A DNA stretch of 64,000 bases from Spirochaetales bacterium (GCA_037142615.1 JBAXAI010000012.1:26415-90414); one strand, 5' to 3'; positions 13,932-32,622 are shown, counted from the stretch's first letter. The notes: generated from the letters alone by a model not told the origin. Numbers and translations: made by a program.

Positions 13932-16372
13932 GGTTTCTCCTTGCGGACGTTTAGGGTCAGCGACTGGGTTCCGGTCTGCACGCCCGACGCGGTCAAAGCA
14001 AGCAGGTGGCGTGTTCCGGCGCCGAGGTCGGCCGCACGGGTTCGCACCCAAACCGCGCAAACACCGCCAATCAGGGCCACGGTGGTGGGCCCCAAGATTT
14101 CGCCGGGACCAGTGAGCGTCAAGGTCACCACTTCGCTCGAGTAGGTGAGCACCTGCTCGTGGGTGTCGAGGTGGCGCAGGACGACGCGGGTGACGTCGTA
14201 GGTTTCGCGTTCGACCAAGTGCGTCGCGTCGGCCTTCACCTCGAGGCGGGCCGACTGCGACGGCCCCTTGTCGGTGCGGGCGACCACCTCGCCGTTTTGG
14301 AGGGCCTCGAAGGTGTACACCAGCGAGGTCTGACCCCACTGCCCTACGTAGCGCACGAACAGCGCGGTGAGCCTGGGCAGGCTGAAGCCATGCAACATCA
14401 GGAAGCCGGCCCGCAGCTGGGCCGTAAGCGGCAACGCTTTGTCTCCGTGACGGACGATGGCGCGGAACAGCCTCTTGAGCATTCGCGACGCCAGCGGCGT
14501 CAACCCTTCTTTGGTGACTAGCTGCTCGCCGACAAAATCGTCGATCACCACCGGCGGATGCGGCAAGTCAGGCCAGTTTTTCCGGTCCGGGAGAAACTCG
14601 GCCAGCACCTCGCCGTTGAGGCTCAGCCGTACCCGGTCGGCGTTGGTGAAGGCCAGCACCTGCCCCAGCATGCCGCCGTCGCGGTCGCCGGGAATCATGG
14701 CCGTGGCCAGCTCGAGCACGGGCACTTCGCTCTGTTGGCTGGCGTAGGCCGCCGCGGCGAGCTTGGGCAGGCGGAAGATGTCGCTCACGCCGTGGTAGCA
14801 GATGTGGTCACCCGAGCCGAAGTCGCGGTGGGTGTTGTAGTCGAACGCGCACCAACCAATGGCGCCCGAGCGCTGCGGATGCGCGTAGGCGGCCTGAAGC
14901 ACCCGCAGGTGACGAAGGGCGTGCTCGATCCGGCGGCTTTCGGTGTCAAAGCTCTTGGTGGGGAACATGTGGCCGTTGTGCTCGGTGACCAGGAACGGGG
15001 CCTTGCGGGGCAAAACTTTCTTCGGGTCGAGGAGCGCTTGGTTGGTGCCCTTGTGCACAAAGTCATTGTAGGTATAGACATCCTCGAACAGGGCGCTCTT
15101 TTCGAAGTTGCGAACCCCGCCGGTTTGCCGGGTGGGGTCGAGCTGGTGAGCGAGCGCGTTGGTGCGGCGGTAGAACTCGTCGCTGTCGGGGCTCTCGTTG
15201 ATGCGCACGCCCCACAGGATGACCGAAGGGCGGTTGCGGTCCCGGACAATCATGTCGCGCACGTCTTGCAGCGACTGCTCCTGCCAGGCCAGATCGCCGA
15301 TGTGCTGCCAACCAGGAATCTCCTCGAACACCAAGAGGCCGATCTCGTCGCAGCGGTCCAAAAAGTGCCGGCTCTGCGGGTAGTGGCTGGTGCGCACCAG
15401 GTTCACACCGAGTTCGAACTTCAGCAGGTCTGCGTCGCGGGCCTGGGCCGAGCGCGGCATGGCGTACCCCACGTGGGGCCACGCCTGGTGGCGGTTGAGC
15501 CCGCGCAGCTTGAGAGGTTTGCCGTTGAGCAAGAAGCCCTCGGGCGTGAAGCGGGCCTCGCGGAAACCGAAGGTGACCTGAGCCGCGTGGGGCCGGGCGC
15601 TGACGCCTTCCACTTTCAGCTGGTACAGCGCGGGAGTCTCGGGCGACCAGAGCTGCACACCTTCGGGGTACAGCGCGCAGACGGCGACTTGCCCGGCGCC
15701 GGAGCCGAACTCGAAGTGAAACGGGCGCGTGAGCACGACTTCGGAGCCCTTCGAAAGAGTCAGCACCAGATCGACGGCGCGGGGACGGGCAAGCTCACCG
15801 GAGAGGGGACCGACGAAGTTCAGTTCCACTTCCAGGTGCGGTTGGAGCTCTGGCGTGCCGGGCAAGACGTCGAGGGTCTTCACAAAGGTGTCGACCAGGT
15901 GGAAGGGCTCGACCCACTCCAGCTGCACCTCTCGGTAGATGCCGGCGAAAGTGAGGTAGTCGACCACGTAGCCAAAGGGGGGAATGCGCTTGTCCTCGTG
16001 CCCGTCGACCAGCACCTCGACGACATTCTCTTGCCCGGCAACGAGTTGGTCGGTGAGGTCGAAGGTGAACGGGGTATAGCCGCCCAAGTGTTCCCCCACC
16101 AGGGTGAGCGGTCCGACGGAGGCCGAGGCCGGTCCCACGCGAACCTCCGCCCGTGCCATGACGCCCTCGAAGTGGATCAGGGTTCGCAGGCCGGGGCGCA
16201 GCGCGTCGGGCGGGAGGATCTTGCGGTAGCGGCTGACAAAGTGGAACTCGGTCTCGCTGAAGTTGTTGAGCGGCAGGTCGGTGGTGGAATGCGGCAGGTC
16301 GACCAGATCGCAGGCGTCACCAACAGGGTCGCGGAACCACTGCCAGCCGAAGTTGAGGGGTGTGCTGTTCAT
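13928..16372 (-). CDS. glycoside hydrolase family 2 protein (beta-galactosidase/beta-glucuronidase-type)
   Basis: 814 aa. GH2 motifs (NLVRTSHYPQSRHFLDRCDEIGLLVFEE, WGVRINES). ATGA overlap with downstream GH36 gene and upstream ABC ATPase gene. Confidence 0.8.
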   Translation of the reverse strand: MNSTPLNFGWQWFRDPVGDACDLVDLPHSTTDLPLNNFSETEFHFVSRYRKILPPDALRPGLRTLIHFEGVMARAEVRVGPASASVGPLTLVGEHLGGYTPFTFDLTDQLVAGQENVVEVLVDGHEDKRIPPFGYVVDYLTFAGIYREVQLEWVEPFHLVDTFVKTLDVLPGTPELQPHLEVELNFVGPLSGELARPRAVDLVLTLSKGSEVVLTRPFHFEFGSGAGQVAVCALYPEGVQLWSPETPALYQLKVEGVSARPHAAQVTFGFREARFTPEGFLLNGKPLKLRGLNRHQAWPHVGYAMPRSAQARDADLLKFELGVNLVRTSHYPQSRHFLDRCDEIGLLVFEEIPGWQHIGDLAWQEQSLQDVRDMIVRDRNRPSVILWGVRINESPDSDEFYRRTNALAHQLDPTRQTGGVRNFEKSALFEDVYTYNDFVHKGTNQALLDPKKVLPRKAPFLVTEHNGHMFPTKSFDTESRRIEHALRHLRVLQAAYAHPQRSGAIGWCAFDYNTHRDFGSGDHICYHGVSDIFRLPKLAAAAYASQQSEVPVLELATAMIPGDRDGGMLGQVLAFTNADRVRLSLNGEVLAEFLPDRKNWPDLPHPPVVIDDFVGEQLVTKEGLTPLASRMLKRLFRAIVRHGDKALPLTAQLRAGFLMLHGFSLPRLTALFVRYVGQWGQTSLVYTFEALQNGEVVARTDKGPSQSARLEVKADATHLVERETYDVTRVVLRHLDTHEQVLTYSSEVVTLTLTGPGEILGPTTVALIGGVCAVWVRTRAADLGAGTRHLLALTASGVQTGTQSLTLNVRKEKP

Positions 16373-17346
16373 GAGTGTTGGTAGATCTCCTTGACGATGT
16401 CGGCGATGTCGGGGTCTTCGATGGCGAGGTCTTTCACCTCGCGCTCCTGCACCACGCGGGCGATCAGGTCGCCGGACCGGATCCCTTCGCGGGGGAAGCG
16501 CAGCACGAGGCGGTCGGGGGTCTCTTCGGCGGTGACGCCTTCGGGCAGCCCGGTGAGCGGTGCGCCGCCGGGTCGTCCCAGGTCAAAACTGATGCGTCGT
16601 ATGCGGCCGTAGCGGTCGCGCAAATCGTTCTGGCTACCGTCGAAAGCCTGCTTGCCGTCGTCGATGACAATGATGCGCCCGCAGATCTGCTCAATATCGC
16701 CCAGGTCGTGCGTGGTGAGGAAGATGGTGGTTCCCCGGTTCTTGTTCACGTCCTTGATGGCTTCGCGCAGGCGTTCCTTCACCACGAGGTCGAGGCCGAT
16801 GGTGGGTTCGTCGAGGAACAGGATTTTGGGGTCGTGGAGCAGGCTGGCGGCAAAATCGGCACGCATCCTCTGGCCCAGACTCAAGTTGCGCACCGGCGTC
16901 AGGTAGAACTCGTCGAGCTCGAGGATTTTCTTGAACCACGCGAGGTTCTCGTCGAAGCGGGCCTGGGGCACCTGGTAGAGCCGCCGCAGAATGCCCAGGC
17001 TCTCGCTCACGGGCAGGTCCCACCACAGCTGCGTGCGCTGGCCGAACACCACACCGATGTTTTGGGCGTTCTTCTGGCGGTTCTTGTGCGCCTCGGCCCC
17101 GAACACCCGGCATTGGCCCGACGTGGGGTGCAGAATCCCGGTCATCATTTTGATGGTGGTGCTCTTGCCGGCGCCGTTGACCCCGATAAAGCCGATGGAC
17201 TCGCCACCGGCGATGCTCAGGCTCAGGTCGTCCACCGCGCGTTTGACGGTGTATTCCCGGCTGAAGAGCGTCTTGAACGCGCCGCCGAGGCCCTCGTGCT
17301 TTTTGGGAGTGCGGAACTCCTTGGTCAGATGCTCCAGCTCGATCAC
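16369..17346 (-). CDS. ABC transporter ATP-binding protein (ABC-2 exporter type)
   Basis: Walker A GVNGAGKST, signature LSLGQRMRADFAASL, Walker B ILFLDEPT, H-loop TTHD. Confidence 0.85.
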   Translation of the reverse strand: MIELEHLTKEFRTPKKHEGLGGAFKTLFSREYTVKRAVDDLSLSIAGGESIGFIGVNGAGKSTTIKMMTGILHPTSGQCRVFGAEAHKNRQKNAQNIGVVFGQRTQLWWDLPVSESLGILRRLYQVPQARFDENLAWFKKILELDEFYLTPVRNLSLGQRMRADFAASLLHDPKILFLDEPTIGLDLVVKERLREAIKDVNKNRGTTIFLTTHDLGDIEQICGRIIVIDDGKQAFDGSQNDLRDRYGRIRRISFDLGRPGGAPLTGLPEGVTAEETPDRLVLRFPREGIRSGDLIARVVQEREVKDLAIEDPDIADIVKEIYQHS

Positions 17347-17367
17347 AGCGCCCTCCTCACGGTCAAC

Positions 17368-18198
17368 TTAGGTCCCGGTCCCGGTGTAGCGGCGCAGACC
17401 GATGCGGAACAGAACGAAGCCAAAACCAACGAACGCCGCCGACAACAGCGCCATGCCGACGGGAACCCACGTCTTGCTCACGACGTCAAAGCCCAGCGCC
17501 GCCGATAGCGCCGCCGTGTCGCGCAAAAACCAGGCCATGGGCACGTAACTCACGACGGCGAAAGGAAGCACGAACAGCAGGAAGTTCTTCAGCCACACGT
17601 TCTTGTAGATGTCGAGCGGGTACTTGGTGAAGCTGTTGACCTCGTAGGCCACCTGCATCAGCTCGCCGCTCGACACCGTCCAGAAGGCCACCGCCGCCGC
17701 CGCCAGCTTGATGCCGAAGTACAGCGCCAAGCCGCAGACCAGGAACACCAGCAGCATGCCCAGTTCGGCGGGCCCGAGAGCCAGCCCCAATCGCAGCCAG
17801 GCGTAAGCGAACAGCAGGAACCCGACCAGCAGTTCGCCAAAGCCGTCGAACTGCACGCGCTCCATGATGATGTGCTGGATGATGCCGATAGGCCGCAGCA
17901 GGTAGTGGGTGAAGCTGCCGTCGCGGATACGCCACCACCCCACCAGCCAGATGTTGTCGTTGTAGATGTGGTCGATGCCGCGCACCACCTGGCTCCAGCC
18001 GTAGAACAGCAGCATCTCGTCGAAGCTCCAGCCGCCCACCGCCTTGATCTGCGTGAACACCGCGAACAACACGAGGAAGGACCCAATCTGCTGGATGCTC
18101 AGCGCGATGACGCCGATGAGGAAGTCGAGCTTGTACTCGACGAGGGCCTTCACCTGCTGGCTGAGGAACGCCGCGTAGATAGAAAAGAACCGGCGCAT
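17368..18198 (-). CDS. ABC-2 family transporter permease
   Basis: 276 aa polytopic membrane protein from ATG at 18198 (the 600-aa ORF call is an upstream extension in same frame). Immediately upstream of ABC ATPase. Confidence 0.6.
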   Translation of the reverse strand: MRRFFSIYAAFLSQQVKALVEYKLDFLIGVIALSIQQIGSFLVLFAVFTQIKAVGGWSFDEMLLFYGWSQVVRGIDHIYNDNIWLVGWWRIRDGSFTHYLLRPIGIIQHIIMERVQFDGFGELLVGFLLFAYAWLRLGLALGPAELGMLLVFLVCGLALYFGIKLAAAAVAFWTVSSGELMQVAYEVNSFTKYPLDIYKNVWLKNFLLFVLPFAVVSYVPMAWFLRDTAALSAALGFDVVSKTWVPVGMALLSAAFVGFGFVLFRIGLRRYTGTGT

Positions 18199-19073
18199 CA
18201 GCCCCCCTGAATCGTGACGCGTTTGAGCGCCCGACCCCAGGTGAGCCAAACCACGAGTGCCATCGCGAGCACCCAGAACGCCTGCATGCCGAGGTGCCAG
18301 GCGATTTCGGTGGGGGTGCTGAGCATGCCGGTGGCAATAGCCGACGGCACGTAGTACAGCGAGGGGAACGGCGTGGCGTAGGCCACGTACCCAAGGCCCG
18401 TCAGCAAGCCCTTCGTCAGTTCCTCGGGTAAGAACGGCACCGGGAAGTTGCCGCTGGGCGCGTTCGCCAACTGGAACAGCAGGTTGAACGCGATCACCTG
18501 CCCCGAGAACAGCGCGATGGCCTGGTCCTTGAACAGGAACAACCCCCAGTAGTTGGTGATCCAGAAGGCCACCAGCCCGAGCAAAAAGGCCACGAGAAGG
18601 GCCAGCACGTAGGTGAGGGCCAAGCTGAGCACCGTGAGCGCCACCGTCGTCAGGCTGACCGAGGCGATGGGCACCAAAAACGCGACGATGACCACGAAGG
18701 GCACCAGCGCGAGCAGGTTGCCCACCGTGAAGCCCACCTGTTGGGCCACCTGCTCGCCGAAAAAGCTGTAGGGGCGCACCAGGTGCATGGCGATGGCGCC
18801 GTCCTTGATGGTGCCGCCCACGTTGCCGTCGATGCCGCAGGCCGTGAGGCGGCCGAAGATCATGCCCAGCGCGACATAGCTGAGGTACTGGCCCAGGCTG
18901 ATGGTGCCCAGCGTGCCGCCATTCCCCCCGAACACCGCGCTCCACAAAAAGTACTGGATGAGCAGGAGCACCAGATCGTTGATCATGAAGATCAGAACAC
19001 GGACCCGGTAGGTCCACATCACCTGGATGTTGAGAGGAATGAAGCCGAGGTAGCGGTCGAGGCGCGCGAACAT
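18198..19073 (-). CDS. ABC-2 family transporter permease
   Basis: Polytopic membrane protein. Start placed at ATG 19073 (MFARLDRYLG...) to avoid overlapping galE. Longer alternative start at 19118. Confidence 0.6.
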   Translation of the reverse strand: MFARLDRYLGFIPLNIQVMWTYRVRVLIFMINDLVLLLIQYFLWSAVFGGNGGTLGTISLGQYLSYVALGMIFGRLTACGIDGNVGGTIKDGAIAMHLVRPYSFFGEQVAQQVGFTVGNLLALVPFVVIVAFLVPIASVSLTTVALTVLSLALTYVLALLVAFLLGLVAFWITNYWGLFLFKDQAIALFSGQVIAFNLLFQLANAPSGNFPVPFLPEELTKGLLTGLGYVAYATPFPSLYYVPSAIATGMLSTPTEIAWHLGMQAFWVLAMALVVWLTWGRALKRVTIQGG

Positions 19074-19078
19074 GCGCC

Positions 19079-20107
19079 CTAATTGTAACCCTTGGGGTTC
19101 TGGCTTTGCCAGCGCCACGCGTCAGCGCACATGGCGTCGAGGCCGCGGGTGGCCTTCCAGCCAAGTTCACGCTCGGCGAGGCTGGGGTCGGCGTAGCTGG
19201 CCGCCACGTCGCCGGGCCTTCGGGGTACCACTTCGTAGGGCACTTTTTTGCCGCTGGCCTTTTCGAAGGCCTTCACGACGTCGAGCACGCTGCTGGGGTT
19301 GCCAGTGCCAAGGTTATACGCGACAGCCCCTGGCCTGGTCGCGAGCTTCTCGACGGCCTTGAGGTGGCCTTGCGCCAGGTCGACGACGTGGATGTAGTCG
19401 CGCAGGCCGGTGCCGTCGGGCGTCGGGTAGTCGTTGCCGTACACCTTGAGCTGTGCGCGCATTCCCACGGCCACTTGGCTGACAAACGGCAGCAGGTTGG
19501 CCGGCACGCCCAGCGGATCCTCGCCGATTTTGCCCGACGGGTGCGCTCCCACCGGGTTGAAGTACCGCAGCAGGATGACGTTCCAAGGGTTGGGATCCTT
19601 GGCGAGCACGTCGGCATGGGCTGCGTCACGCAGAATCTGCTCCATCATCACCTTGGTCCAGCCGTAGGGGTTGGTGGCAGCTGTCGGCAGATCCTCGGCG
19701 AAGGGCGGGTTGGGATTCTCGCCGTACACGGTGGCCGACGAGCTGAACACGATGTTTTTGACCCCGGCGGCGGCCATCGCCTCGCAGAGCACAATGGTGC
19801 CGGCGATGTTGTTGTGGTAGTAGCGCAGCGGCTGGGCCACCGACTCGCCCACCGCCTTGAGCGCCGCGAAATGAATCACAGCGTCGATCTTGTGGGCGGC
19901 GAACACTTTGTCGAGGCCCGGACGGTCGAGCAGATCGACGCGGTGGAAGGTCAGCGCCTTGCCGGTGATTTCGCGCACCCGGTCGAGAGCGATGGTCTTG
20001 CTGTTCACGAGGTTGTCGACGACCACCACCTGATGGCCCGCGTTCAGCAGTTCCACGCAGGTGTGGCTTCCGATGTAGCCGGCCCCGCCGGCAACGAGAA
20101 TGGTCAT
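19079..20107 (-). CDS. galE: UDP-glucose 4-epimerase
   Basis: MTILVAGGAGYIGSH... Rossmann GxxGxxG. YxxxK (YGRSK-like region). 342 aa. Full-length GalE architecture. Confidence 0.9.
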   Translation of the reverse strand: MTILVAGGAGYIGSHTCVELLNAGHQVVVVDNLVNSKTIALDRVREITGKALTFHRVDLLDRPGLDKVFAAHKIDAVIHFAALKAVGESVAQPLRYYHNNIAGTIVLCEAMAAAGVKNIVFSSSATVYGENPNPPFAEDLPTAATNPYGWTKVMMEQILRDAAHADVLAKDPNPWNVILLRYFNPVGAHPSGKIGEDPLGVPANLLPFVSQVAVGMRAQLKVYGNDYPTPDGTGLRDYIHVVDLAQGHLKAVEKLATRPGAVAYNLGTGNPSSVLDVVKAFEKASGKKVPYEVVPRRPGDVAASYADPSLAERELGWKATRGLDAMCADAWRWQSQNPKGYN

Positions 20108-20116
20108 AGAAACTCC

Positions 20117-21334
20117 TTACAGTTTGGCCTCGCCAGCGCGGTCGGGGCGTACGCTCAGCCGGTGCACCGACCCGGGGCCGAACACCGCCTCCATCGTTTT
20201 CGCATAGTCCGCGGCCCGCTTCAAGGGAATATAGGCCTGGATGGTGCCGGCAAACCCGCCACCGTGGACGCGTACCGCCCCGACGCCTTGCGGGTTGTCG
20301 TGGCTCAAGAAGCGGCGCGTGAGGGCCAGGCCCAGAGGAATCGCCTGGTCGCGGATGGCGCCGTGGGGGATGACGTTCTGCAGGAACTCGGCGCTCGAGG
20401 CCCCCGACGCGTCGACCAGTGCCAGGTAGTCCTCGAACCGCCCCGCCTCGATCGCCTTCACCATGTGCTCGACACGGAGGTTTTCTTCCAAGAAGTGCAT
20501 CGCCCGCAGCACGGCCCGGTCGCCCACGCGGGCCCGCAGTCCGGCCACCTCGGCCCAGAACTTCGCGGGATCGACCTCGCGCAGAACCGACTTGCCGAAG
20601 CAGGCCGCCACAGCGTTCATTTCACTGCGGATGGCGGCGTAGTCGGGAGTCAGGTCGGCGTGGTTGCCCTTGGTGTCGACAATGCACAGCGCGTACCCGT
20701 GGGCCTCCCAGTCGAGGGCCAGTTGCCGGATCACGGGCTGGGACGGTGAGGCGAAGTCGATGGTGACCAGGCCGCCCACCGAGCTCGCCATCTGGTCCAT
20801 CAGGCCGCACGGTTTGCCAAAGTGCAGGTTCTCAGCCTCCTGCCCGATGACGCCCAGCGTCACCGCGTCGACCTTGCCGTCGTTGTACAGGGCGCTGAGA
20901 ATGGTGCCGGTGAGGACTTCGAAGGCGGCCGAACTCGACAGTCCCGAGCCCTGGAGCACGCTGCTTTCGACACAGGCACGGAAGCCACCCACTTTCAGAC
21001 CCCGTTTGACGAACGCGGCGGCCACACCACGGAGCAAGGCTTCCGTCTTGCCCGTCTCGGCGGGTTGTGGCTCAAGCGAATCGAGGGCCACGCGGAATGG
21101 GGCGTCCCAGCCGGCGGAGCGCAGTTCGATCACGCCTTCGGCACGCTGAACGACGGCGGCGGCCTCGAGGTCGATGGCGGCGGCGAGGACCCGGCCGTTG
21201 TTGTGGTCGGTGTGGTTGCCCCCCAGTTCGGTACGGCCGGGCGCGGTAAAGGCCCGCAGGCCGGTGGTGTTGCCGTACACTTCGCCGAAGCGTTTGGTCA
21301 GGCGTGCGAAAACAGCGGCGCGTTCGCTTTTCAT
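20117..21334 (-). CDS. galK: galactokinase
   Basis: 405 aa from ATG 21334. GHMP kinase motifs ([25 protein letters not shown]). Overlaps galT stop (ATGA). Confidence 0.9.
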
Positions 21335-22395
21335 GAGGCGGCTCCCGGGGTAAGGACAGTTTCGACGCCGAGTGCCGTCTCGGCGCAGGCCCGGAGGCGC
21401 TCGGCGGCCTGCTCGGCGGTGATGTCGCGCTGGGGTTGAGCCAGCATCTCGTAACCCACCATGAACTTGCGCACGGTGGCCGAACGCAGCAGCGGCGGCA
21501 AAAAGTGCAGGTGCAGCTGCCAGTGGTCGTGCGCCTGCCCGTCGGTGGGGCGCTGGTGCAGGCCCATGGTGTACGGAAAACTCACCTGGAACAGGTTGTC
21601 GTAACGGCGCGTCATGCGGCCCAGCGCATCGGCCAGCCCAGCACGCTCGGCGCGGGTCAGTTCGGCCACGTCGCGGCGATGAGTTTTGGGGAGCAGCATG
21701 GTTTCGAAGGGCCACACCGCCCAGTACGGCACCACGGCCACCCAGGTGTCGTTTTCGAACAGCACGCGTTCCTTTTCTTTGAGCTCGAGCTTCAGGTAAT
21801 CGAGCAGCAAGACGCTGCCCTTGTCTTTCAACCACTTGGCCTGCTGTTCGCCTTCGCGGGCTGGCAGGTCGGGCACCGTGCGCTGGGCCCAGATCTGCCC
21901 GTGCGGGTGCGGCATCGACGAGCCCATGATTTCGCCCCGGTTCTCGAAAATCTGCACCGAGTTGATTTCGGGGCGACCACCGAGGTCGAGGTACTGGGCC
22001 GCCCACTCGTCGACCACCTTGGTGAGGCCCTCGTTGGTCATGCGAGCCAAGGTGAGGTTGTGTTCGGGGCTGAAGCACACGACACGGCACAAGCCCGCTT
22101 CGGCTTCGGCCACGAGCAAACCGCCTTCGTTGCGCGCCCCGGTCGGAACGTCGGTCAGCAGCGCCGAGAAGTCATTGGTGAAACTGAACACGTCGGTGTA
22201 GGCGGGATTCACGTCGCCGGTGACCCGCTTGTTGCCGGGGCACAAATAGCAATTGGGATCGTGCTTGGGCATGTTGGTGGGCGGCACAGCCTCGACCTTG
22301 CCCTGCCAGGGCCGCTTGGTGCGGTGCGGCGACACCAGTACGGTCTCACCCGTCAGCGGGTTAAATCGGCGGTGCGGAACGTCATTCCAATCCAT
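21331..22395 (-). CDS. galT: galactose-1-phosphate uridylyltransferase
   Basis: 354 aa. CxxC...HxHxQ (CYLCPGN, HPHGQIW) HIT-like GalT motifs. Confidence 0.9.
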
Positions 22396-22416: not shown

Positions 22417-22432
22417 ATGTACACGTGTACAT
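22417..22432. promoter_or_regulatory. perfect 16-bp palindrome ATGTACACGTGTACAT (LacI-family operator-like, central CG) upstream of galT
   Basis: Seen directly. Fits TGnnnnCGnnnnCA LacI/GalR-type half-site symmetry. Lies between galT start (22395) and divergent gene. Confidence 0.5.
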
Positions 22433-22513
22433 TACGGTCAAAAGACGAGACTGTCAAGTCAATCAGGCATGCGACGGTTTTTTCTGTTACAATGCGCAAC
22501 GACAGGAGTTCTC

Positions 22514-23545
22514 ATGGACATTAAAATGTGGGGCAAGGCCCTGAGTATCATCCCTGCGGTGACAAAGGACGAGTGGAACGCCCTCGACTTCGTAGCCAAG
22601 TGGCTGATTGCCACCCGCGCGGCCGTCCTGCTGATGACTTTTTTGTCGGCGGCGCTCGCCGGACTGTTCGCTGCCCGCGACGGCGGCTTCGAGTTTCTGC
22701 CGTGGCTGGCGGTCGCGCTGGGGCTGATTCTGGCCCATGCGACCAACAACATTGTGAACGACTACACCGACTTTGTGCGTGGCGTCGACACCGACAACTA
22801 CTTCCGACGGCAGTACGGGCCGCAGCCGGTGGCCGAAGGCCTGCTGACCAAGGGCCAAACCCTGCGCTGGGCCATCACCACGGGCGTGATCGCCTTGGCC
22901 ATTGGCTTGGGCCTGTCGTGGTGGCGGGGCTGGGATCCGGTCGTCCTGTATTTGCTGTTCGGCGGCGTGTTCCTGGTGCTGGCCTACACGTGGCCGCTCA
23001 AACAACTCGCGCTCGGTGAAGTGTCGGTCATCCTGGCGTGGGGCCCGCTGATGATCGGTGGCGGCTACTACACGCTCACCGGCCACTGGGACTGGAACGT
23101 GGTGCTCGCGGGTCTGCCCTACGCGCTGGGCGTGACCACCGTCATCTTCGGCAAGCACATCGACAAACTCGAAATCGACAAGGCCAAGAAGATCCACACG
23201 CTGCCGGTGCTCATCGGCGAAAAGGCCTCGCGCTGGGCGGTCATCGCGATGATGTTGCTGCCCTACCTGCTGGTGGGTGGCCTGATCGCGACCAAGTACT
23301 TCACCCCGGTGATGGCGCTCGTGGTGCTCGCCATTCCGTCGTCGCTCAAGACCATCCAACTCTTCCTCAAACCACGACCGGCGGAGCGTCCCGAGTGGAT
23401 GGCCGAGGGCAATGGTGGCTGGCCGTTGTTCTTTGCGCCGATCGGGTTTATCAACAACCGGGCCTTTGGCCTGTGGTTCCTGCTGGGACTGATTGTCGAT
23501 GTCGCTTTGCGGGTGATTCCAGCCACCAGCGGCTTCTGGCGGTAG
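22514..23545 (+). CDS. menA: UbiA-family prenyltransferase, MenA-like (1,4-dihydroxy-2-naphthoate polyprenyltransferase)
   Basis: 343 aa from ATG 22514 (AGGAG RBS). 8-9 TM. Asp-rich motif NNIVNDYTDFVRGVD typical of UbiA/MenA. Confidence 0.65.
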   Translation: MDIKMWGKALSIIPAVTKDEWNALDFVAKWLIATRAAVLLMTFLSAALAGLFAARDGGFEFLPWLAVALGLILAHATNNIVNDYTDFVRGVDTDNYFRRQYGPQPVAEGLLTKGQTLRWAITTGVIALAIGLGLSWWRGWDPVVLYLLFGGVFLVLAYTWPLKQLALGEVSVILAWGPLMIGGGYYTLTGHWDWNVVLAGLPYALGVTTVIFGKHIDKLEIDKAKKIHTLPVLIGEKASRWAVIAMMLLPYLLVGGLIATKYFTPVMALVVLAIPSSLKTIQLFLKPRPAERPEWMAEGNGGWPLFFAPIGFINNRAFGLWFLLGLIVDVALRVIPATSGFWR

Positions 23546-23550
23546 AGCCG

Positions 23551-24372
23551 GTGGACCTCGAAACCCTGTATCAACCGATTGCCAGCGAGTTGGACGCCGT
23601 CAAGGTCGGTCTGAGTGCCTTGGCCAACACGTTCCACTACGGGCACACCAACACCATCCTGGAGCATTTCTTCCAGCGTCCGGGCAAGCTCTTGAGGCCG
23701 GCACTGGTGCTCCTGTCGGCGAAGGCCCTGGTGGATCCCCTGCCCGCTCCGCTGCGCGAACGGCTGGTGCAAACCGCCTTGGGGGTCGAACTGCTGCACG
23801 ATGCGAGCTTGGTGCACGACGACGTGCTCGACAGTGACACCGAGCGCCGGGGGCAGGCCACGCTCAATGGGGCTTGGGGCAACAAGATCGCGGTGCTGGC
23901 GGGCGACGTCATCTACTCGCGCGGGTTCGGGCTTTTTACGCAGGCCTTGCCACAGCCGCTTTTGGCCGACGTGATCCGCCTGAACGAGCAGATGTGCTCG
24001 GCCGAGATCGAACAGGCCCGGACGCTCGGAAGCCCGCTCGACCGGGAAACCTATTTCCGCATCATCGAGGGCAAGACCGCCGCGTTCATGAGCGTTTGCT
24101 GCCACCTGGGTGCGTCGGTGGCCGCTGAGGTGAACCCGAACTACTTGCCGCATGCCTTCACCCTGCGCCGTTTCGGGCTGGCCTTCGGCCTGGCGTATCA
24201 ACTCTTTGACGACCACGCCGATGGCGACCTGAACTGTCCGGGCCTCGACGGCGTGACCGAGGGCCGCCGCCATCTGGCGAAAGCGGTCGATCTGGTAAGT
24301 TCGTTACCACCAAGCCCCGCAAGCTTGGAACTCTCTCATCTTTGCTCATTCCTCCAGGAACAAAACTCGTAA
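23551..24372 (+). CDS. polyprenyl diphosphate synthase (trans-isoprenyl diphosphate synthase family)
   Basis: GTG start. GKLLRP, first DDxxD (LVHDDVLD) and second DDxxD (FDDHADGD) motifs. Confidence 0.7.
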   Translation: MDLETLYQPIASELDAVKVGLSALANTFHYGHTNTILEHFFQRPGKLLRPALVLLSAKALVDPLPAPLRERLVQTALGVELLHDASLVHDDVLDSDTERRGQATLNGAWGNKIAVLAGDVIYSRGFGLFTQALPQPLLADVIRLNEQMCSAEIEQARTLGSPLDRETYFRIIEGKTAAFMSVCCHLGASVAAEVNPNYLPHAFTLRRFGLAFGLAYQLFDDHADGDLNCPGLDGVTEGRRHLAKAVDLVSSLPPSPASLELSHLCSFLQEQNS

Positions 24373-24377
24373 TTCAT

Positions 24378-24416
24378 TTGACAGCGGGTCCTTTCGGGTA
24401 GTTAATGGAAATTAAC
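24378..24416 (+). promoter_or_regulatory. sigma70-like promoter TTGACA-17bp-GTTAAT with palindrome GTTAATGGAAATTAAC over the -10
   Basis: TTGACA 24378-83, 17-nt spacer, GTTAAT 24401-06. -10 embedded in 16-bp palindrome. 10 bp before GGAGG RBS of cytochrome b gene. Confidence 0.4.
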
Positions 24417-24425
24417 GGAGGATTT

Positions 24426-25979
24426 ATGTCAGATTTAAAGTATCCCGAGGATAAGAAGCTGGGTCCCCAGTTTTCCAGCTTGATGATCGACGAAGTTCCC
24501 AACTACGGCAACCGTTTCCAGTACTCGCTGGGGTTTCTGGCGGCCATCGCGTTCACCATGCTTATTGTCACTGGCGTGATCGAAGTGTTCTTCGGCGCCG
24601 ACTGGTGGCTGACCAACAGCGTGGGTATTTTCTTCCGCAGCATTCACCTTTGGGCCACGCAGGCCTTTGTGGTGTTCATCATTCTTCACCTTGTCGTGGT
24701 GTTCTGTACCATGGGCTACCGTGGCAAACGCAAGATCACCTGGGTGCTCGGTGTGTTGATGTTCCTGTTCGCCTTGATTGAGACCGAAATGGGCTACGCC
24801 CTCCGTGGCGACTTCTCGGCCCAGTGGCGCGCGCTGCAGGGCGCTGACTTCTTCAACGGCTCCGGCCTGGGTCTTTGGATCAACCCGCTCAACGAACTCA
24901 AGATCATGGGCACCCACATCATGATCATGCCGCTGATCATCATCACCATTTTGGTGGTGCACTACATGTTGGTCCGCTTCCTGGGTCTTGCCACGCCTCC
25001 CAAGCCCGACCATCCGCACCGCATCGAAAAAGCCAACCACACCGTGCTGTTTCTGCGCGGCGGTTTTGTCGCGGTGCTCGTCATTGTGCTCGCTATCCTG
25101 CTCCCTTCCCCCTACGTCAAGCCCGTGACGGCGGCCGAAGTCGCCAAGAGTGACCCCAAACTGTTTGCCCGCACGCTGGTGGGTGAATTTGGCCGGCTGG
25201 AAAGCCTGGTCGTTCCCGGTCAGGCCGCCGACGTCAAAGAGGCCGATCTGGAAGCGCAAGACCTCACCTCAGGCTATGTCGACAACCTGCACCCCTACAC
25301 CGACAAAGTGGATGAGGCAACCAAGGCCGCCGACCCCGGCGTTCCCGGCATTGCCTTCGACACACGCGAAGTGTTCGTCAAGCAACCGTGGTCCGGACTG
25401 GTCGCTGGCGGACGCCTGACCGACGATTTGGCCACCATCGAAAAGCTCAGCGCTGAAGAACAGGCCAAGCTGGTGGAAGAAGCCGCCGACTATTTCGGCG
25501 ACAACAAGGGCAACGTGCAGCCGGCGAACAACCTGCTGATCGGTGTGGTCAACAACCTGACCACCCTGGCGACTTCCGGCTACTACGACCAGTACCTCAA
25601 GGGTTACGGCAACGCGGGCGACAACACCAAGTTTCTCCGCTTCATGGCCGACCTGGGCGTGCTCGCGCCACTGGCCGACGCGATGGACATCACCACCGAA
25701 AAGTGGGGCTTCCTGCGCGAAGAAAAGCCGACCGGCACCGACGGCAAGCCGATGATGGACGTCGCCACGCCCCCCGGAGCTTGGTGGCTGGCCCCGATCG
25801 GCGTGCTCAACACCACGGTTCTCGTGGGTGACGACAACGGCGACCGCGACGGAGCCATGATCCTGGGCATTCTGGTGCTGATTCTGGGTGCGGTTCCCTT
25901 CATCCCTGGAGTCAACAAGCTGCCCCTGTACCTGAGCCTTTACAAGCTATTCCAGCGCAAACCCAAGGCTGCGAAGTAG
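24426..25979 (+). CDS. cytochrome b (bc-complex cytochrome b N-terminal domain) with long C-terminal hydrophilic extension
   Basis: RSIHLWATQAFVVFIILHLVVVFCTMGYRGKRKITWVLGV matches the conserved cytochrome b/b6 helix B-C region incl. haem-ligand His. About 250-aa non-membrane C-terminus. Confidence 0.7.
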   Translation: MSDLKYPEDKKLGPQFSSLMIDEVPNYGNRFQYSLGFLAAIAFTMLIVTGVIEVFFGADWWLTNSVGIFFRSIHLWATQAFVVFIILHLVVVFCTMGYRGKRKITWVLGVLMFLFALIETEMGYALRGDFSAQWRALQGADFFNGSGLGLWINPLNELKIMGTHIMIMPLIIITILVVHYMLVRFLGLATPPKPDHPHRIEKANHTVLFLRGGFVAVLVIVLAILLPSPYVKPVTAAEVAKSDPKLFARTLVGEFGRLESLVVPGQAADVKEADLEAQDLTSGYVDNLHPYTDKVDEATKAADPGVPGIAFDTREVFVKQPWSGLVAGGRLTDDLATIEKLSAEEQAKLVEEAADYFGDNKGNVQPANNLLIGVVNNLTTLATSGYYDQYLKGYGNAGDNTKFLRFMADLGVLAPLADAMDITTEKWGFLREEKPTGTDGKPMMDVATPPGAWWLAPIGVLNTTVLVGDDNGDRDGAMILGILVLILGAVPFIPGVNKLPLYLSLYKLFQRKPKAAK

Positions 25980-25992
25980 CACCAACTTGACC

Positions 25993-26006
25993 TGAACACG
26001 TGTTCA
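25993..26006. promoter_or_regulatory. perfect 14-bp palindrome TGAACACGTGTTCA upstream of the LacI-family regulator gene
   Basis: Seen directly. Same central CACGTG core as the galT palindrome. 16 bp before the ATG of the LacI-family gene. Confidence 0.5.
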
Positions 26007-26021
26007 CGCCATGCTGGCAAC

Positions 26022-27005
26022 ATGCCTACCCGTCAGGATGTTGCCAGCAAAGCCGGCGTGAGCGGCGCCACCGTCAGCCGGGTGTACAACTCGCCTGGCC
26101 TGGTTGACGCCGCCACCCGTGAACGCGTGCGGGCTGCCGCTGCCGCGTTGGGCTTTGTCCCCGACCGCCATGCGGCTGCCTTGCGGCGCAAAACCAGCAC
26201 CACCCTGCTTCTTGTCGAAATCGAGGACTCCGAGGCCTACCGGTGGCCAGGTCAGCGTGCGTACCAGAGCCTGTACGGCGAGATCATCCGTGGGCTGGTG
26301 CATCACCTTCAGACGACCCCGTGGCACCTCGAGCTTGTCAACTTACCTTCATCACGCGACCTCCCTTCGTTGGTGGCGGGCCCCGAGTTTGCGGGGATTC
26401 TGGGGTTTGACGTGGTCACCCAGGCGGTGGCCGACGAACTGGCGAAGCTGGGGAAGCCGGTGGTCTGCGCCCACCATGGCGATCATCTGACCGGTGTCAG
26501 TACCGTGACAACCGACAATTTCGCCGGAGGCGCGCTTCAGGCGCGCTGGCTTCGCGAGCAAGGCCTGGTTGACGTGGCGTACGTCACAGGACTTTCGGAC
26601 CAGGTCAGGTCGCACTCGTTGCGCCAGCAGGGCTTCGCCTCGGTTCTGCAACCCCTTGAACTGCTCGCCACGGGCGTCGGTCTGCTGGAAGGGAGGCAAG
26701 CCGCCCGGAGTCTGGCGCCCCTGGTCAAAACGGGCCGGGTGAGGGCTGCGGCCTGCGTGAACGACCTGACGGCGCTGGGGCTGATCCAGGGCTTGGCCTC
26801 GCTGGGCTTGCAGGTTCCGCGCGATGTGGTGGTGCTGGGCTACGACAACCTGGTGGTGACCGATCTGTTCGAGACCCGCTTGCCCACCATTGAGGCCCGG
26901 TTGCCCCTCGTGTACGAGCAGGCGCTCGACGTGCTGATCGGTCTGGTGCAGCACCCCGGCGGAGAGACCCACCTCGCCGTGATCCCCGAATTAGCGGGGG
27001 TCTGA
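26022..27005 (+). CDS. LacI-family transcriptional regulator
   Basis: N-terminal HTH MPTRQDVASKAGVSGATVSRVYN, periplasmic-binding-like sugar domain. 327 aa. Confidence 0.85.
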   Translation: MPTRQDVASKAGVSGATVSRVYNSPGLVDAATRERVRAAAAALGFVPDRHAAALRRKTSTTLLLVEIEDSEAYRWPGQRAYQSLYGEIIRGLVHHLQTTPWHLELVNLPSSRDLPSLVAGPEFAGILGFDVVTQAVADELAKLGKPVVCAHHGDHLTGVSTVTTDNFAGGALQARWLREQGLVDVAYVTGLSDQVRSHSLRQQGFASVLQPLELLATGVGLLEGRQAARSLAPLVKTGRVRAAACVNDLTALGLIQGLASLGLQVPRDVVVLGYDNLVVTDLFETRLPTIEARLPLVYEQALDVLIGLVQHPGGETHLAVIPELAGV

Positions 27006-27872
27006 AACGACCACCCGGTTGCGCCCGGATTCCTTGGCTTCGTAAAGGGCCCGGTCGGCGTGCTCGAGCAGATGGTCTCCACTGGTGTCGGCGAGGGTCA
27101 TTTCGGCCACGCCGATGCTGACCGTGAAGCGAATCGACTGGCCTTCGTGTTCCACAGCGACGGCGGCGACTTTTTCGCACAGGCGAACGGCGAGCCCTCG
27201 CGCATTGGCCAAGTCGGCGCCAGGAAGCAGAACGGCAAACTCCTCGCCGCCCAAACGGCCTGCCACGTCGAAACGGCGTAGGGTGGCGCTAACCAAGTCG
27301 GCGAACTGCCGCAGAAGGGTATCGCCCGCGGCGTGGCCGTAGTTGTCGTTCACGCGCTTGAAGTGATCCAGGTCGAGCATCAACAACGACACAGGCTGGT
27401 CGGGTTGCCTCTGGAACCGCGAGATTTCGGCCTCGTAGAGGGCCAAAAACGACCGGCGGTTGCAAAGGCCGGTCAGAAAGTCGGTCGCGGCGAGGTCTCT
27501 CAGTTCCAGTTCCAAACGTTTATGGCCGGAAATGTCGGTGACGGTGCCGAAGTAGCCCACCAATTCTTCGCCCTCGCGGTCGTCGGTGGCCTGCCCGAGC
27601 ACCCAGATCGTCGAACCGTCGCGCCGCACCAGGCGAAAATCCTCCGAAAAAGGCCCACCACCGTGAGCGAAGGCAGCCCAGCGTGCCAGCACCCGTTCGC
27701 GGTCGTCGTCGTGGATAACCTCGGTCCAGCCGTCGTCCTGAGCCCGGGCTGAGTTCTGGCCCGTGAGCAAGGTCCAGCGGTCGTTGACGTAGTCGCAGCG
27801 GCCCTGGAGGTCGGTCCGGAAGATTCCGACAGGGAGGTGCTCGAGCAGGCGCGTCATCATTCCCGGTTGCAT
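26991..27872 (-). CDS. PAS domain-containing diguanylate cyclase (GGDEF)
   Basis: ATG at 27872 with GAGG RBS. PAS (DGSTIWVLG...), GGDEF (RLGGEEF), RxxD I-site absent/unclear. Convergent 15-bp overlap with lacI-family gene. Confidence 0.8.
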   Translation of the reverse strand: MQPGMMTRLLEHLPVGIFRTDLQGRCDYVNDRWTLLTGQNSARAQDDGWTEVIHDDDRERVLARWAAFAHGGGPFSEDFRLVRRDGSTIWVLGQATDDREGEELVGYFGTVTDISGHKRLELELRDLAATDFLTGLCNRRSFLALYEAEISRFQRQPDQPVSLLMLDLDHFKRVNDNYGHAAGDTLLRQFADLVSATLRRFDVAGRLGGEEFAVLLPGADLANARGLAVRLCEKVAAVAVEHEGQSIRFTVSIGVAEMTLADTSGDHLLEHADRALYEAKESGRNRVVVSDPR

Positions 27873-27909
27873 AGCCTCATCGTCTTCTTTTTGCTGGAGT
27901 TTGACAAGT

Positions 27910-28695
27910 TCACTCCTGCGCCGAGGCCAAGCGGTACAGCGCCACGCTGGCCGCAACCGAAGCGTTGAGGCTATCGTGCCCCTCGGCCATGGGAAGCACC
28001 AAGGGGATGGAACCCTGCAGCCGTTCGGTAGGCGACAACCCTTCGAACTCGTTGCCTACCCACACCGCCAGTTTGCCGGCCCTCGCTGTGCGCCCAGCGG
28101 GACTTTCGCGCCACACTTCCAAGGGAAGAGCACCCTCTTCCAGCGCCAAAACGACCGTCGTCCACCCGGCCTGCCCGAAGAGCTTCTGCATCGCAACCAA
28201 AGAGTCGGGTAACTGCACGGGCGGGTGGGCGTACACCGCGCCCATCGACACCTTGGCGCAGCGGCGGCTGAAGGGGTCGCACGATTCCCGTCCCACCGCC
28301 ACCGCATCCCAGCCCAGGGCCAGCGCCGAACGGTAGAGCGCGCCGAGGTTCTCGGGATCGGTGAGCCGTGGGGCCACGGCAAGCCGCCGGGCAGGACCGG
28401 CCAAAAAGGCTTCCAGAGTCAGCGGCGCGGGCCGATGGGCCACGGCAATCACGCCCCGATGAAAGGAAAAACCCGCCCACCGGTCCATTTCGGCCTGCGA
28501 CAGCACCTGAACCGGGCAGCGCCCCGCGGCCAAAACCGTGAACTCGGCGTAGTGTGCCTCGAGGCAGTGAACCGCCTCGGGAACCAACGACGATGCGAGC
28601 AAACGGCGGGCCAAGGTGTTTCCTTCGGCCAACGTGAGGCCGGAACGGGTCCACTGCCGTTCGCTGAAGCCCCAGTACGGGGTGGGATCGTCCAT
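27910..28695 (-). CDS. TrmH/SpoU-family RNA 2'-O-methyltransferase
   Basis: 261 aa from ATG 28695. SpoU methylase motifs (LVLGNE-like WVGNEFEGL, SLNASVAASVALY). Confidence 0.65.
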   Translation of the reverse strand: MDDPTPYWGFSERQWTRSGLTLAEGNTLARRLLASSLVPEAVHCLEAHYAEFTVLAAGRCPVQVLSQAEMDRWAGFSFHRGVIAVAHRPAPLTLEAFLAGPARRLAVAPRLTDPENLGALYRSALALGWDAVAVGRESCDPFSRRCAKVSMGAVYAHPPVQLPDSLVAMQKLFGQAGWTTVVLALEEGALPLEVWRESPAGRTARAGKLAVWVGNEFEGLSPTERLQGSIPLVLPMAEGHDSLNASVAASVALYRLASAQE

Positions 28696-30588: not shown

Positions 30589-32622
30589 TCAGGCCAGCCC
30601 CCGCTGCTTCAACAGAGCGCCGATCTGTGGGTCGCGGCCCCGGAAGTTACGGAAGGCCTGCGCCGGTTCGACCGAGTTGCCGATGCTGAGGATGGTCGCC
30701 TTGAGCTTGGCTGCCAACTCGGGATCGAACAGGTCGCCCTTCTCCTCGAAGGCGGCGAACACGTCGGCTTCGAGCACTTCTGCCCACATGTACACGTAGT
30801 ACCCGGCCGCGTAGCCTTCGCCCGTGAACAGGTGCTGAAAGTGCGGCAGGCGGTGGCGCAAGCCGATCTCGTCGGGCACACCCAGCCGCTTGGATTCCTC
30901 GCGCTCAAAGGTGGCGGCGTCGAAGCCCGCCGCATCGGGCAAACTGTGAAGCGCCATGTCGAGCAGGGCTGGTCCCAGGTACTGCACGGTTTCCCAGCCC
31001 ATATTGAAGGTGCGGGCCTTGCGGATCTTCTTGACCAGAGCGGGAGGGATGCTGGCTCCGGTCTTCACATGCTTGGCGAACTTGGCCAGCACCTCGGGCG
31101 CGAGAGCCCAGTGCTCATTGAGTTGGCTGGGCAGCTCGACGAAGTCCTGCAGAACGTTGGTGCCGCTCAGGCCCTCATATTTCACGCGGCTGAGCAGGCC
31201 GTGGAGGCCGTGGCCGAACTCGTGGAACAGCGTCTCGACGTCGTCGAAGCTGAGCAAGACGGGCTCGCCGGGTTTGCCGTGATTAAAGTTGTTGTTGTTG
31301 CTCACGATGGGCACCACGCCCTCGCTCTGCTCGCGGTAGTTGCTCATCCACGCGCCGGAATGCTTGCCGGTGCGGGAATAGTTGTCGCTGATGAAAATGC
31401 CCTGCAGGCTGCCATCGGCGTTGCGCACCTCGAACAGGCGGGCGTCGGGGTGGTACAGCGCTGCCTTGCCGGTCACCTCGGCAAACTCGACCTGGTACAG
31501 GCGGCTGGCCGTGTGGAACATCGCCTGCAGCATGTTGTCGAGCACGAAGTAGGGCTTGATTTCGCCGTCGTCGAGTTGGTAGTCACGCACGCGCACCTTT
31601 TCCGCGTAGTAGCGCCAGTCCCAGGCCTCAAGAGCGGTCAGACCATCGGCCTTGGCCACCGAGAGCAGCAACTGATATTCCTCGCGGGATCGCTTCAGCG
31701 CGGCCGGCCACACCTGCTCGAGCAGGCCCGCGACGTTGGCGGGGGTCTTGGCCATGCGGCTCACCAGAGCGTAGTCGGCGTAGCTTTTGTACCCGTGGAT
31801 GTGGGCCATCTCGGTGCGCAGCGCCAAGATTTCGGCAATCAGCGGCTTGGTGTCGCGCTCGGGGTGCATTTCGCCCCGGGCCGAAAACTGGTCGTACACC
31901 TTTTTGCGCAGATCGCGGCGGCTCGAGCGGGTCAAAAAGGGCTCGACAAAGGAACGGCTGGTGGTGAGGGCCCACTTTCCGGGGTGGTCGTGTTCCTTGG
32001 CGCACTCGGCGGCGGCCTCGATCAGGTCTTCGGGGAGCCCGGCGAGGTCAGCCTTGCTGTCGAGCACGATGAGCGTCGAATCCTCGTCGGCGAGCACGTA
32101 CTGCCCAAAGGTGGTGCATTTTTGCGACAACTGTTCGACCAGTTCGGCGAGGCGGGCCTTTTTGGCGGCGTCAAGCTTGGCACCCGCGAGCACGAAGTCG
32201 AGGTGGATCCGCTCGGTCAGGCGAATCTGCACAGGGTCGAGACCGCCGGAGTGGCGTGTGCTGTGCACCGCATCGACGCGGGCGAACAGGGCCGCATCGA
32301 GGTAGAACTTTTGCTGGTAGACAGCCAGCTTCGGACTGTATTCCATTTCGATGGCTTGCAGGGCCTCGTTGGTCAGGTTGCTCGTCAGGTTGCCGAACAC
32401 GCCGTACACTCGGCTCAGCGTGGCCCCTGCCCGGTCGAAGGGCTCGAGGGTGTTGGCGAACGTTGGCGCGTTCCGATTGCTAGTGATAGCTGCCACGTCG
32501 GCCGACCCTTCGGCCATGGCGGCGTCGAGGGCTGCGGCGTAGTGTTCGGTTTGAATCAAGTCGAAGGGGGGTAGGCCGTAGGGCGTGTTCCACGGCATAA
32601 GCAGGGGGTTGGTGGTGCTCAT
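30589..32622 (-). CDS. dcp: peptidyl-dipeptidase Dcp / oligopeptidase A-type M3 zinc metallopeptidase
   Basis: 677 aa from ATG at 32622. HEFGHGLH zinc-binding HExxH plus downstream Glu. M3-family length and motif spacing. Confidence 0.85.
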   Translation of the reverse strand: MSTTNPLLMPWNTPYGLPPFDLIQTEHYAAALDAAMAEGSADVAAITSNRNAPTFANTLEPFDRAGATLSRVYGVFGNLTSNLTNEALQAIEMEYSPKLAVYQQKFYLDAALFARVDAVHSTRHSGGLDPVQIRLTERIHLDFVLAGAKLDAAKKARLAELVEQLSQKCTTFGQYVLADEDSTLIVLDSKADLAGLPEDLIEAAAECAKEHDHPGKWALTTSRSFVEPFLTRSSRRDLRKKVYDQFSARGEMHPERDTKPLIAEILALRTEMAHIHGYKSYADYALVSRMAKTPANVAGLLEQVWPAALKRSREEYQLLLSVAKADGLTALEAWDWRYYAEKVRVRDYQLDDGEIKPYFVLDNMLQAMFHTASRLYQVEFAEVTGKAALYHPDARLFEVRNADGSLQGIFISDNYSRTGKHSGAWMSNYREQSEGVVPIVSNNNNFNHGKPGEPVLLSFDDVETLFHEFGHGLHGLLSRVKYEGLSGTNVLQDFVELPSQLNEHWALAPEVLAKFAKHVKTGASIPPALVKKIRKARTFNMGWETVQYLGPALLDMALHSLPDAAGFDAATFEREESKRLGVPDEIGLRHRLPHFQHLFTGEGYAAGYYVYMWAEVLEADVFAAFEEKGDLFDPELAAKLKATILSIGNSVEPAQAFRNFRGRDPQIGALLKQRGLA

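Follow-up and report, generated by a model that had tools for sequence, protein, structure and literature searches.

A 64-kb stretch of DNA (64,000 nucleotides) from an uncultured freshwater spirochaete, a Spirochaetales bacterium (GCA_037142615.1, JBAXAI010000012.1:26415-90414), very probably encodes a local and autoregulated LacI-family repressor of galactose (gal) genes, an instance of ordinary sugar regulation. The whole stretch is referred to as the window, and the palindromes, shuffles, and gene calls all refer to it. The regulator is a protein of 327 residues encoded on the plus strand at 26022-27005. Its two candidate operators are matching palindromes, one upstream of galT (O1, 22417-22432) and the other upstream of the regulator gene itself (O2, 25992-26007). 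Binding of the regulator to O1 and O2, with repression of galT and of its own gene, is considered highly likely from the arrangement and conservation of these sequences. A first-pass annotation of the same DNA had proposed that the regulator autoregulates and controls the gal cluster. This proposal is supported by the conservation of the sites, by their positions in the predicted promoters, and by the link between the motif and one type of DNA-reading head.

Candidate operator sites and predicted promoters

O1, ATGTACACGTGTACAT, is a perfect 16-bp palindrome centered on CG, with the galT ATG (22395, minus strand) at a distance of 21 nt. O2, cTGAACACGTGTTCAc, contains the perfect 14-mer TGAACACGTGTTCA at 25993-26006, with 15 nt between this 14-mer and the regulator ATG. 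The palindromes are located where the first-pass annotation had placed them (22417-22432 and 25993-26006), with distances given there as about 20 bp to galT and 16 bp to the LacI-family gene. The full common pattern TGNACACGTGTNCA has exactly two matches in the window and none in 100 dinucleotide-preserving shuffles. A 16-bp position weight matrix was built from the orthologous sites, and O1 and O2 score 31.0 bits (the matrix maximum) and 21.2 bits, respectively. The next best position in the window scores 4.9 bits and the top score of 30 shuffles is 14.9. The symmetric consensus of the sites is aTGwACACGTGTwCAt, and the central C/G is found in 100% of 25 sites.

Weaker descriptions of the sites are not significant. 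The 8-mer core ACACGTGT occurs twice against an expectation of 1.08, and 28 of the 100 shuffles reach two copies. The loose LacI-type symmetry TGNNCNCGNGNNCA occurs twice against 2.58 expected in the window. What sets the two sites apart is thus the set of 12 specified bases that they share, together with where they lie.

No third credible site was obtained in matrix and mismatch searches of the window. A two-mismatch match at 30781 and a half-site at 30788 were attributed to chance, as both are in a peptidase gene and their score of 3.9 bits does not reach the shuffle maximum. The segment at 30780-30803, CTGCCCACATGTACACGTAGTACC, holds one good half-site, ATGTACACG, within this M3-type peptidase gene. 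The two-mismatch matches in relatives (6956 and 12930 of L001; 4706 of L081, where L numbers denote lineages or loci) are intragenic and were also taken as chance.

The regulator has about 50 orthologue clusters with 57-72% identity from freshwater, peat, and groundwater metagenomes and from uncultured Spirochaetales genomes. More remote orthologues, 39-40% identical, are found in a Marispirochaeta sp. and in an uncultured Spirochaetaceae, and an identical protein is encoded on contig CAZYDO010000046.1 of assembly GCA_964646265.1. The gal proteins of the window and the motif were mapped onto approximately 20 orthologous loci. The sequence TGTACACGTGTACA is present with no mismatches just upstream of galT in every lineage that holds galT (L001/L079, L002, L006/L086/L094, L081, L082, L085, L087-L090, L005/L093, and L159) except L091, where there are two mismatches. 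Across the roughly 15 related Spirochaetales lineages considered, the regulator is 39-72% identical, and the site persists down to 39-40% identity. The first-pass annotation had named loss of the motif upstream of the gal genes of relatives as grounds against its proposal; the opposite was found.

The regulator is directly divergent from galT in 12 lineages, with a spacer of 85-140 bp. The divergent spacers of 11 lineages were aligned (alignment A2), and only six conserved islands are observed while the remainder has diverged. These islands are the galT ribosome-binding site, O1 (invariant), TGTCAA, CTTGACG, the palindrome ATGGACACGTGTTCAT, and TACCCT.

The islands include the boxes of two predicted promoters, which are argued from conserved boxes and spacing only. 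For galT, the predicted -35 hexamer is TTGACA on the minus strand (22452-22457), seen as the invariant TGTCAA of alignment A2. The predicted -10 hexamer is TAATGT (22429-22434, minus strand), with four of its six bases inside O1. Nine of 13 lineages share the combination TTGACA-17 nt-TAATGT although their spacer sequences are unrelated, and two further lineages have TATCGT or TAGAGT at an equal distance from TTGACA. From within the -10 box, O1 extends across the expected start site near 22422. This overlap with the -10 box and the start region is the position expected of a repressor that excludes RNA polymerase.

For the regulator, the predicted -35 hexamer is TTGACC (25987-25992, plus strand), and CTTGAC[CG] is kept in 14 lineages. 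The predicted -10 hexamer, CATGCT (26010-26015, plus strand), begins 17 nt past the -35 box and ends 6 nt before the ATG, and the 17 nt between the two boxes are taken up by O2, which thus lies within the promoter of the regulator itself. In L002, L082, L085-L089, L001, L080, and L083, the corresponding spacer holds the equivalent site ATGGACACGTGTTCAT, and the O2 sites of relatives include GACACGTGTT and ATCACGTGTT. In relatives, an equal distance separates the -35 box from a -10 box that reads TACCCT, TACCGT, or CATGGT, and the ATG comes 5-7 nt later. The regulator ATG at 26022 has no Shine-Dalgarno sequence, a pattern common to 14 lineages (including L002 and L081-L089). A -10 box located 5-7 nt before the ATG together with the missing Shine-Dalgarno sequence suggests that a leaderless regulator mRNA is conserved. 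The Marispirochaeta orthologue (L159) differs in having a leader with AAGGAG.

The distance between the centers of O1 and O2 is 50 bp in L082, L085, and L089, 51 bp in L087 and L088, 62 bp in L002, and 84 bp in L086. At 10.5 bp per turn, these values correspond to 5, 6, and 8 helical turns, each to within about a quarter turn. The phasing, seen in only a few independent spacings, hints at cooperative binding or looping in the relatives. If real, looping or cooperativity would have been abolished in the lineage of the window by the insertion described below. The 39-40% identical outgroups (L159, 7900-7995; L005, 9900-9990) have a single operator between two promoters that would fire across each other, TTGACT-18-TATACT rightward and TTGACG-17-TACCAT leftward, and one occupied site would block both. 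This single-site plan differs from the back-to-back design with two operators of the freshwater clade.

The regulator and its DNA-reading head

The regulator gene is the sole LacI-family gene in the window. The protein contains a LacI-type helix-turn-helix domain (PF00356, residues 5-48, E 2.1e-14, 53.5 bits against a cutoff of 27) and a C-terminal periplasmic-binding-protein-like domain matched by Peripla_BP_3, _4, and _1, all above their gathering scores. The full length is matched to the structures of CcpA, PurR, LacI, and RbsR with E values of 1e-13 to 1e-16. No equivalog name was obtained from NCBIfam. Orthology to the enterobacterial GalR and GalS was rejected (NF008002, 67.6 bits vs 557; NF007706, 74.1 bits vs 555), and the protein is regarded as their functional analogue.

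The recognition helix of the regulator carries T17, V18, S19, and R20, and 98% of the symmetrized sites have G at half-site position 6. The hinge residues A51, A53, L54, R55, and R56 are invariant in 20 orthologues, and their numbering coincides with that of PurR. According to the family analysis of Camas et al. 2010 (PMC2978694), a central CG is accompanied by Ala51 and a hydrophobic residue at position 54, and a G at position 6 by Arg20. In Table S1 of the same work, Ala16 is paired with A at operator position 4 and T or A at position 5 (PMC2978694). The pairs of regulator and site fit these rules for Ala51 and Leu54 with the central CG, for Arg20 with G6, and for Ala16 with A4 and T or A at position 5. 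By the family rule, Leu54 would be inserted into the central CG step, and the protein would presumably bind as a dimer. Members of the family are released from DNA, or in rare cases recruited to it, by a small-molecule effector. Family operators are described as palindromes of even length (16-22 bp) that have CG at the center and lie close to the promoter they control, and the 16-bp motif fits this description. Since the orthologues share an essentially invariant DNA-reading head, they should all recognize the same operator.

Loci were also retrieved by the head peptide AGVSGATVS, which provided about 140 LacI-family loci from many phyla and served as an unplanned control. With no more than one mismatch allowed, the motif lies in the 300 bp upstream of the gene in 30 of the 32 distinct loci with the head R[QND][DE]VA..AGVSGATVSRV[FY]N. 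It is absent from all 109 other LacI-family loci, 100 of which share AGVSGATVS. The positive loci include members of the Bacillota/Clostridia (L007, L015, L020, L021, L041, L050, L058, L061, L095, L098-L101, L103, L107, L132, and L137). These regulators are 25-30% identical overall, have the upstream site TG[AT]ACACGTGT[AT]CA, and carry Phe54 rather than Leu54 in the hinge. Two copies of the site are found 44 bp apart in L020 and L021. ThuA-like and Gfo/Idh/MocA genes lie 3' of the regulator in all of these loci that were examined downstream (L020, L021, L041, L058, L095, and L101), and the ThuA and Gfo/Idh/MocA oxidoreductase assignments were confirmed with Pfam in L058 and L095; the operon is not a gal operon. 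The motif thus follows the reading head and not the gal genes, as is expected if the protein family binds the motif.

The motif is missing where G15-A16 is combined with V, I, or L as residue 22 and with different residues 4 and 5. None of the 48 classes in Camas Table S1 has the pair Gly15-Ala16 (PMC2978694). The head R4-[Q/N/D]5 ... G15-A16-T-V-S-R20-V-[Y/F]22 may, as a tentative proposal, constitute an uncatalogued LacI-family recognition class. Such a class would read the E-box-like core ACACGTGT, with C at operator position 3 and A at position 2, and would be common to non-orthologous regulators of Spirochaetota (gal) and Bacillota (ThuA/Gfo). If true, residues beyond the classical 15/16 pair set the specificity at inner positions, which would extend the published two-residue recognition code. 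Other CACGTG-centered sites in the Camas data set are TGCACACGTGTGCA for an HSTVSR head and AAACACGTGTTT upstream of genes with an RSTVSR head (PMC2978694). The pairing of motif and head could be used for metagenome annotation or as an orthogonal repressor-operator pair.

Proposed mechanism and alternative explanations

In the proposed mechanism, the 327-residue protein would bind the 16-bp consensus. Occupied O1 would block RNA polymerase at the galT promoter and switch off galT, galK, galE, the genes for an ABC-2 transporter, and the genes for two glycoside hydrolases of families GH2 and GH36. O2, located in the spacer of the regulator promoter, would provide negative autoregulation, and a pathway sugar, most likely galactose, would release the repressor. 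The sites are observed, together with how they are conserved, where they lie with respect to promoter-like boxes, and their association with one helix-turn-helix subtype; binding, repression, and the effector are inferred.

The regulon core that is conserved in all lineages consists of galT and galK, usually with galE. GH2 and GH36 are found only in the clade of the window and L001, where GH2 directly follows galE in L001, and the ABC-2 transporter is found only in the window. The conserved galT-galK(-galE) core makes galactose the likeliest inducer, an assignment held with modest confidence.

The eight genes from galT to GH36 are joined by overlaps or gaps of 0-21 nt. No terminator-like site is intergenic in this operon, as the seven hits obtained (9.9 expected) all lie within genes. 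Cotranscription of the eight genes is likely from the packing and the lack of intergenic terminators. The control of the whole cluster proposed in the first-pass annotation is supported at galT by the conserved site, and tight gene packing is the sole basis on which control would extend to the transporter, GH2, and GH36.

The regulator and the operon are separated in the window by a cassette of three plus-strand genes (22514-25979) for UbiA, a polyprenyl synthase, and a cytochrome b-like protein, identified by Pfam and by gene calls on an identical contig. In 12 other lineages, the spacer between galT and the regulator has no such cassette. In a neighbor-joining tree constructed without bootstrap, the window is grouped with L001 and L080, both of which have UbiA and polyprenyl synthase genes upstream of the regulator. 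The cytochrome b gene is present in the window and L080 and absent in L001, despite the near-identical regulators of L001 and L080. L083, where the regulator is unlinked from galT, is sister to these three, and the outgroups have the divergent layout. In the window, the insertion lies exactly between the back-to-back -35 boxes (TGTCAAG, 3.5 kb, CTTGACC). The inserts extend over 22458-25986 in the window, 8006-9965 in L001, and 285-1794 in L080, and both halves keep their promoter boxes and operator.

From the tree and the divergent outgroups, the 3.6-kb separation is most simply explained as a derived insertion, in which the cassette entered between the two -35 boxes and split an ancestral, contiguous control region for galT and the regulator. 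The earlier suggestion that control is exerted despite the 3.6-kb gap is thus supported, since the regulator is divergent from galT in most relatives and the distance would be secondary. The locus presents a divergent control region cleanly split by gene insertion with both halves intact. The cassette has its own extended -10 box, TGtTACAAT at 22485-22493 (within TGtTACAATGCGCA, 22485-22498), and this box, TACAATGCGCA, is conserved in L001. The cassette is probably outside the regulon. The single match of a generic sigma-70 scanner near UbiA (22499-22527) runs over the start codon of this gene and was dismissed as spurious.

Several points weigh against an autoregulated gal repressor acting at O1 and O2. 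The sigma-70 scanner calls neither predicted promoter, and each -10 box matches TATAAT at three of six positions. Four to five related lineages (L003, L081, L090, L091, and L005/L159) lack O2, and autoregulation through a second site is therefore not universal. The association of head and motif has a Fisher p of 1e-28 that is uncorrected for phylogeny (shared ancestry). The conserved galT-galK(-galE) core is the single line of evidence for the effector, and internal promoters may be present inside the 10.9-kb operon. Literature searches with the operator sequence and LacI, and for spirochaete gal regulators, gave no paper on the protein.

The palindromes might instead be bound by another regulator, such as a winged-helix protein of the CopY/BlaI type or a global regulator of the CcpA type, with the LacI-family gene as a bystander. 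O1 contains TACACGTGTA, which matches the CopR/CopY box TACAnnTGTA (PMC7253601). This box does not fit O2 of the window (AACACGTGTT) or the sites GACACGTGTT and ATCACGTGTT of relatives, and nearly all O2 sites of relatives lack TACA...TGTA, with T, A, or G at the position for the T of TACA. The cop box was rejected as a description of all sites, and the cluster is made up of sugar genes rather than copper or beta-lactam genes. In favor of a protein of the CcpA type, O1 is only two mismatches from the cre consensus TGWAANCGNTNWCA. The LacI-family protein itself was rejected as CcpA, as it reaches 64.4 bits with model TIGR01481 against a cutoff of 442.35. The motif tracks the LacI-family head across the retrieved loci, non-gal operons included, and binding by a different regulator is considered very unlikely.

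The preferred reading of a repressor acting at both sites can also be set against one in which O1 is the only functional operator in the window, read-through from the cassette accounts for most expression of the regulator, and O2 is a relic or a minor roadblock. No terminator-like site is found between the cytochrome b stop codon (25979) and the regulator ATG (26022), the -10 box CATGCT of the window is weaker than the TACCCT of relatives, and several lineages have lost O2. O2 is nevertheless a perfect 14-mer in the window, and it is kept with TTGACC-17-CATG[CG]T in all three insertion lineages and in L083. The retention of O2 in the insertion lineages points to selection after the insertion, and a locus with O1 as the only working site is unlikely. 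That the palindromes arose by chance or are structural, for example hairpins, and have no regulatory role agrees with the count of the 8-bp core, which alone is not over-represented. The full pattern is nevertheless absent from the shuffles, and the 16-mer is unchanged between lineages in which the intergenic DNA around it has diverged completely. Its distance from the promoter boxes is also fixed. A chance or structural origin is effectively refuted by the conservation data.

Related systems and gene content

The closest design is that of the streptococcal GalR of S. mutans and S. thermophilus. The streptococcal galR gene has a divergent layout relative to galKTE and is autoregulated. The ancestral spirochaete layout is also divergent, with the operators in the shared spacer. 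In the spirochaetes, galT is first, the operator sequence is different, and the protein is distantly related and passes no equivalog model; in the window, the regulator is also displaced by 3.6 kb. The Streptococcus GalR is described as a LacI-family protein whose gene adjoins the Leloir genes on their upstream side; its target is the intergenic region between galR and galK, and galactose releases it (PMC11950750, citing Ajdic and Ferretti 1998). The GalR of S. thermophilus is reported to be an activator (PMC11950750). The positions of the spirochaete sites, in contrast to the latter, indicate repression.

E. coli GalR and GalS are LacI-family repressors of galETK that use two operators and respond to galactose as the inducer. 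The E. coli half-site TGTAAAC and the spirochaete TGTACAC are one position apart, and Ala16 is common to the proteins (V15 and A16 in GalR). O2 of the spirochaete would control the regulator's own promoter and not the operon as in E. coli, and there is no sign of HU-mediated looping in the spirochaete locus. GalR operators are among the rare odd-length motifs in the survey of Ravcheev et al. 2014 (PMC4052901), whereas the spirochaete operator is an even 16-mer.

Even-length palindromes with CG in the center make up the majority of family motifs in the same survey, where autoregulation is recorded for 72% of the regulators (PMC4052901). Generic local LacI-family regulons likewise combine autoregulation with control of an operon for sugar catabolism through an even, CG-centered palindrome near the start codon. 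Control of galactose or galactoside use is already known for ten LacI-family groups that are not orthologous to one another, and Spirochaetes are not mentioned in that survey (PMC4052901). The understanding of LacI-family regulation is unchanged by the present results. They provide a concrete candidate regulon, with a repressor, a 16-bp operator, two promoters, and eight targets, for uncultured freshwater and peat Spirochaetales that have no genetics.

The gene names given in the first-pass annotation were confirmed by Pfam for galT, galE, GH2, GH36, the transporter, UbiA, polyprenyl synthase, the cytochrome b-like protein, and LacI, and by NCBIfam for galK. The first gene of the operon, galT (21331-22395, minus strand), encodes galactose-1-phosphate uridylyltransferase (PF01087 and PF02744, E 1e-60 to 1e-64). 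The remaining operon genes are also on the minus strand. The galactokinase gene galK (20117-21334) has a start that overlaps the galT stop codon and was identified by NCBIfam galactokinase models at E 2e-43, under the equivalog cutoffs. Its orthologue adjoins galT in relatives, and the L159 gene has the Pfam domain GalKase_gal_bdg. The UDP-glucose 4-epimerase-type gene galE (19079-20107; Pfam Epimerase and GDP_Man_Dehyd, E 2e-57 to 3e-57) begins 9 nt past galK, and counterparts with 78-85% identity lie downstream of galK in relatives.

Two ABC-2-type permease genes (PF06182) are packed tightly 3' of galE at 17368-19118 (18198-19118 or 18198-19073, and 17368-18198). The DrrA-like ABC transporter ATPase gene follows at 16369-17346 (Pfam ABC_tran), with drrA as the top NCBIfam model, below its cutoff. 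The operon transporter (16369-19118) has no gene for a substrate-binding protein and is missing from L001, which is syntenic in other respects. This architecture of permeases and DrrA-like ATPase is usually tied to export, and a role as a sugar importer is unsupported. The beta-galactosidase-type GH2 gene (13928-16372; Glyco_hydro_2_C, E 1e-26) starts within an overlap with the ATPase stop codon. The GH36 alpha-galactosidase gene (11535-13931; Melibiase, E 1.5e-150, GH36N, and GH36C) is the final gene of the packed cluster.

The cassette genes, identified by Pfam on the plus strand, encode the UbiA prenyltransferase (22514-23545), the polyprenyl synthase (23551-24372), and the cytochrome b-like protein (24405-25979). 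The first ~230 residues of the latter protein, which has 524 residues, match cytochrome b models weakly, its top NCBIfam model is ExtP-like (56 bits against a cutoff of 290), and its C-terminal part of 290 residues has no family match. A PAS-GGDEF diguanylate cyclase gene (26991-27956, minus strand) is convergent with the regulator gene, and its 3' end overlaps the last 15 bp of the regulator.

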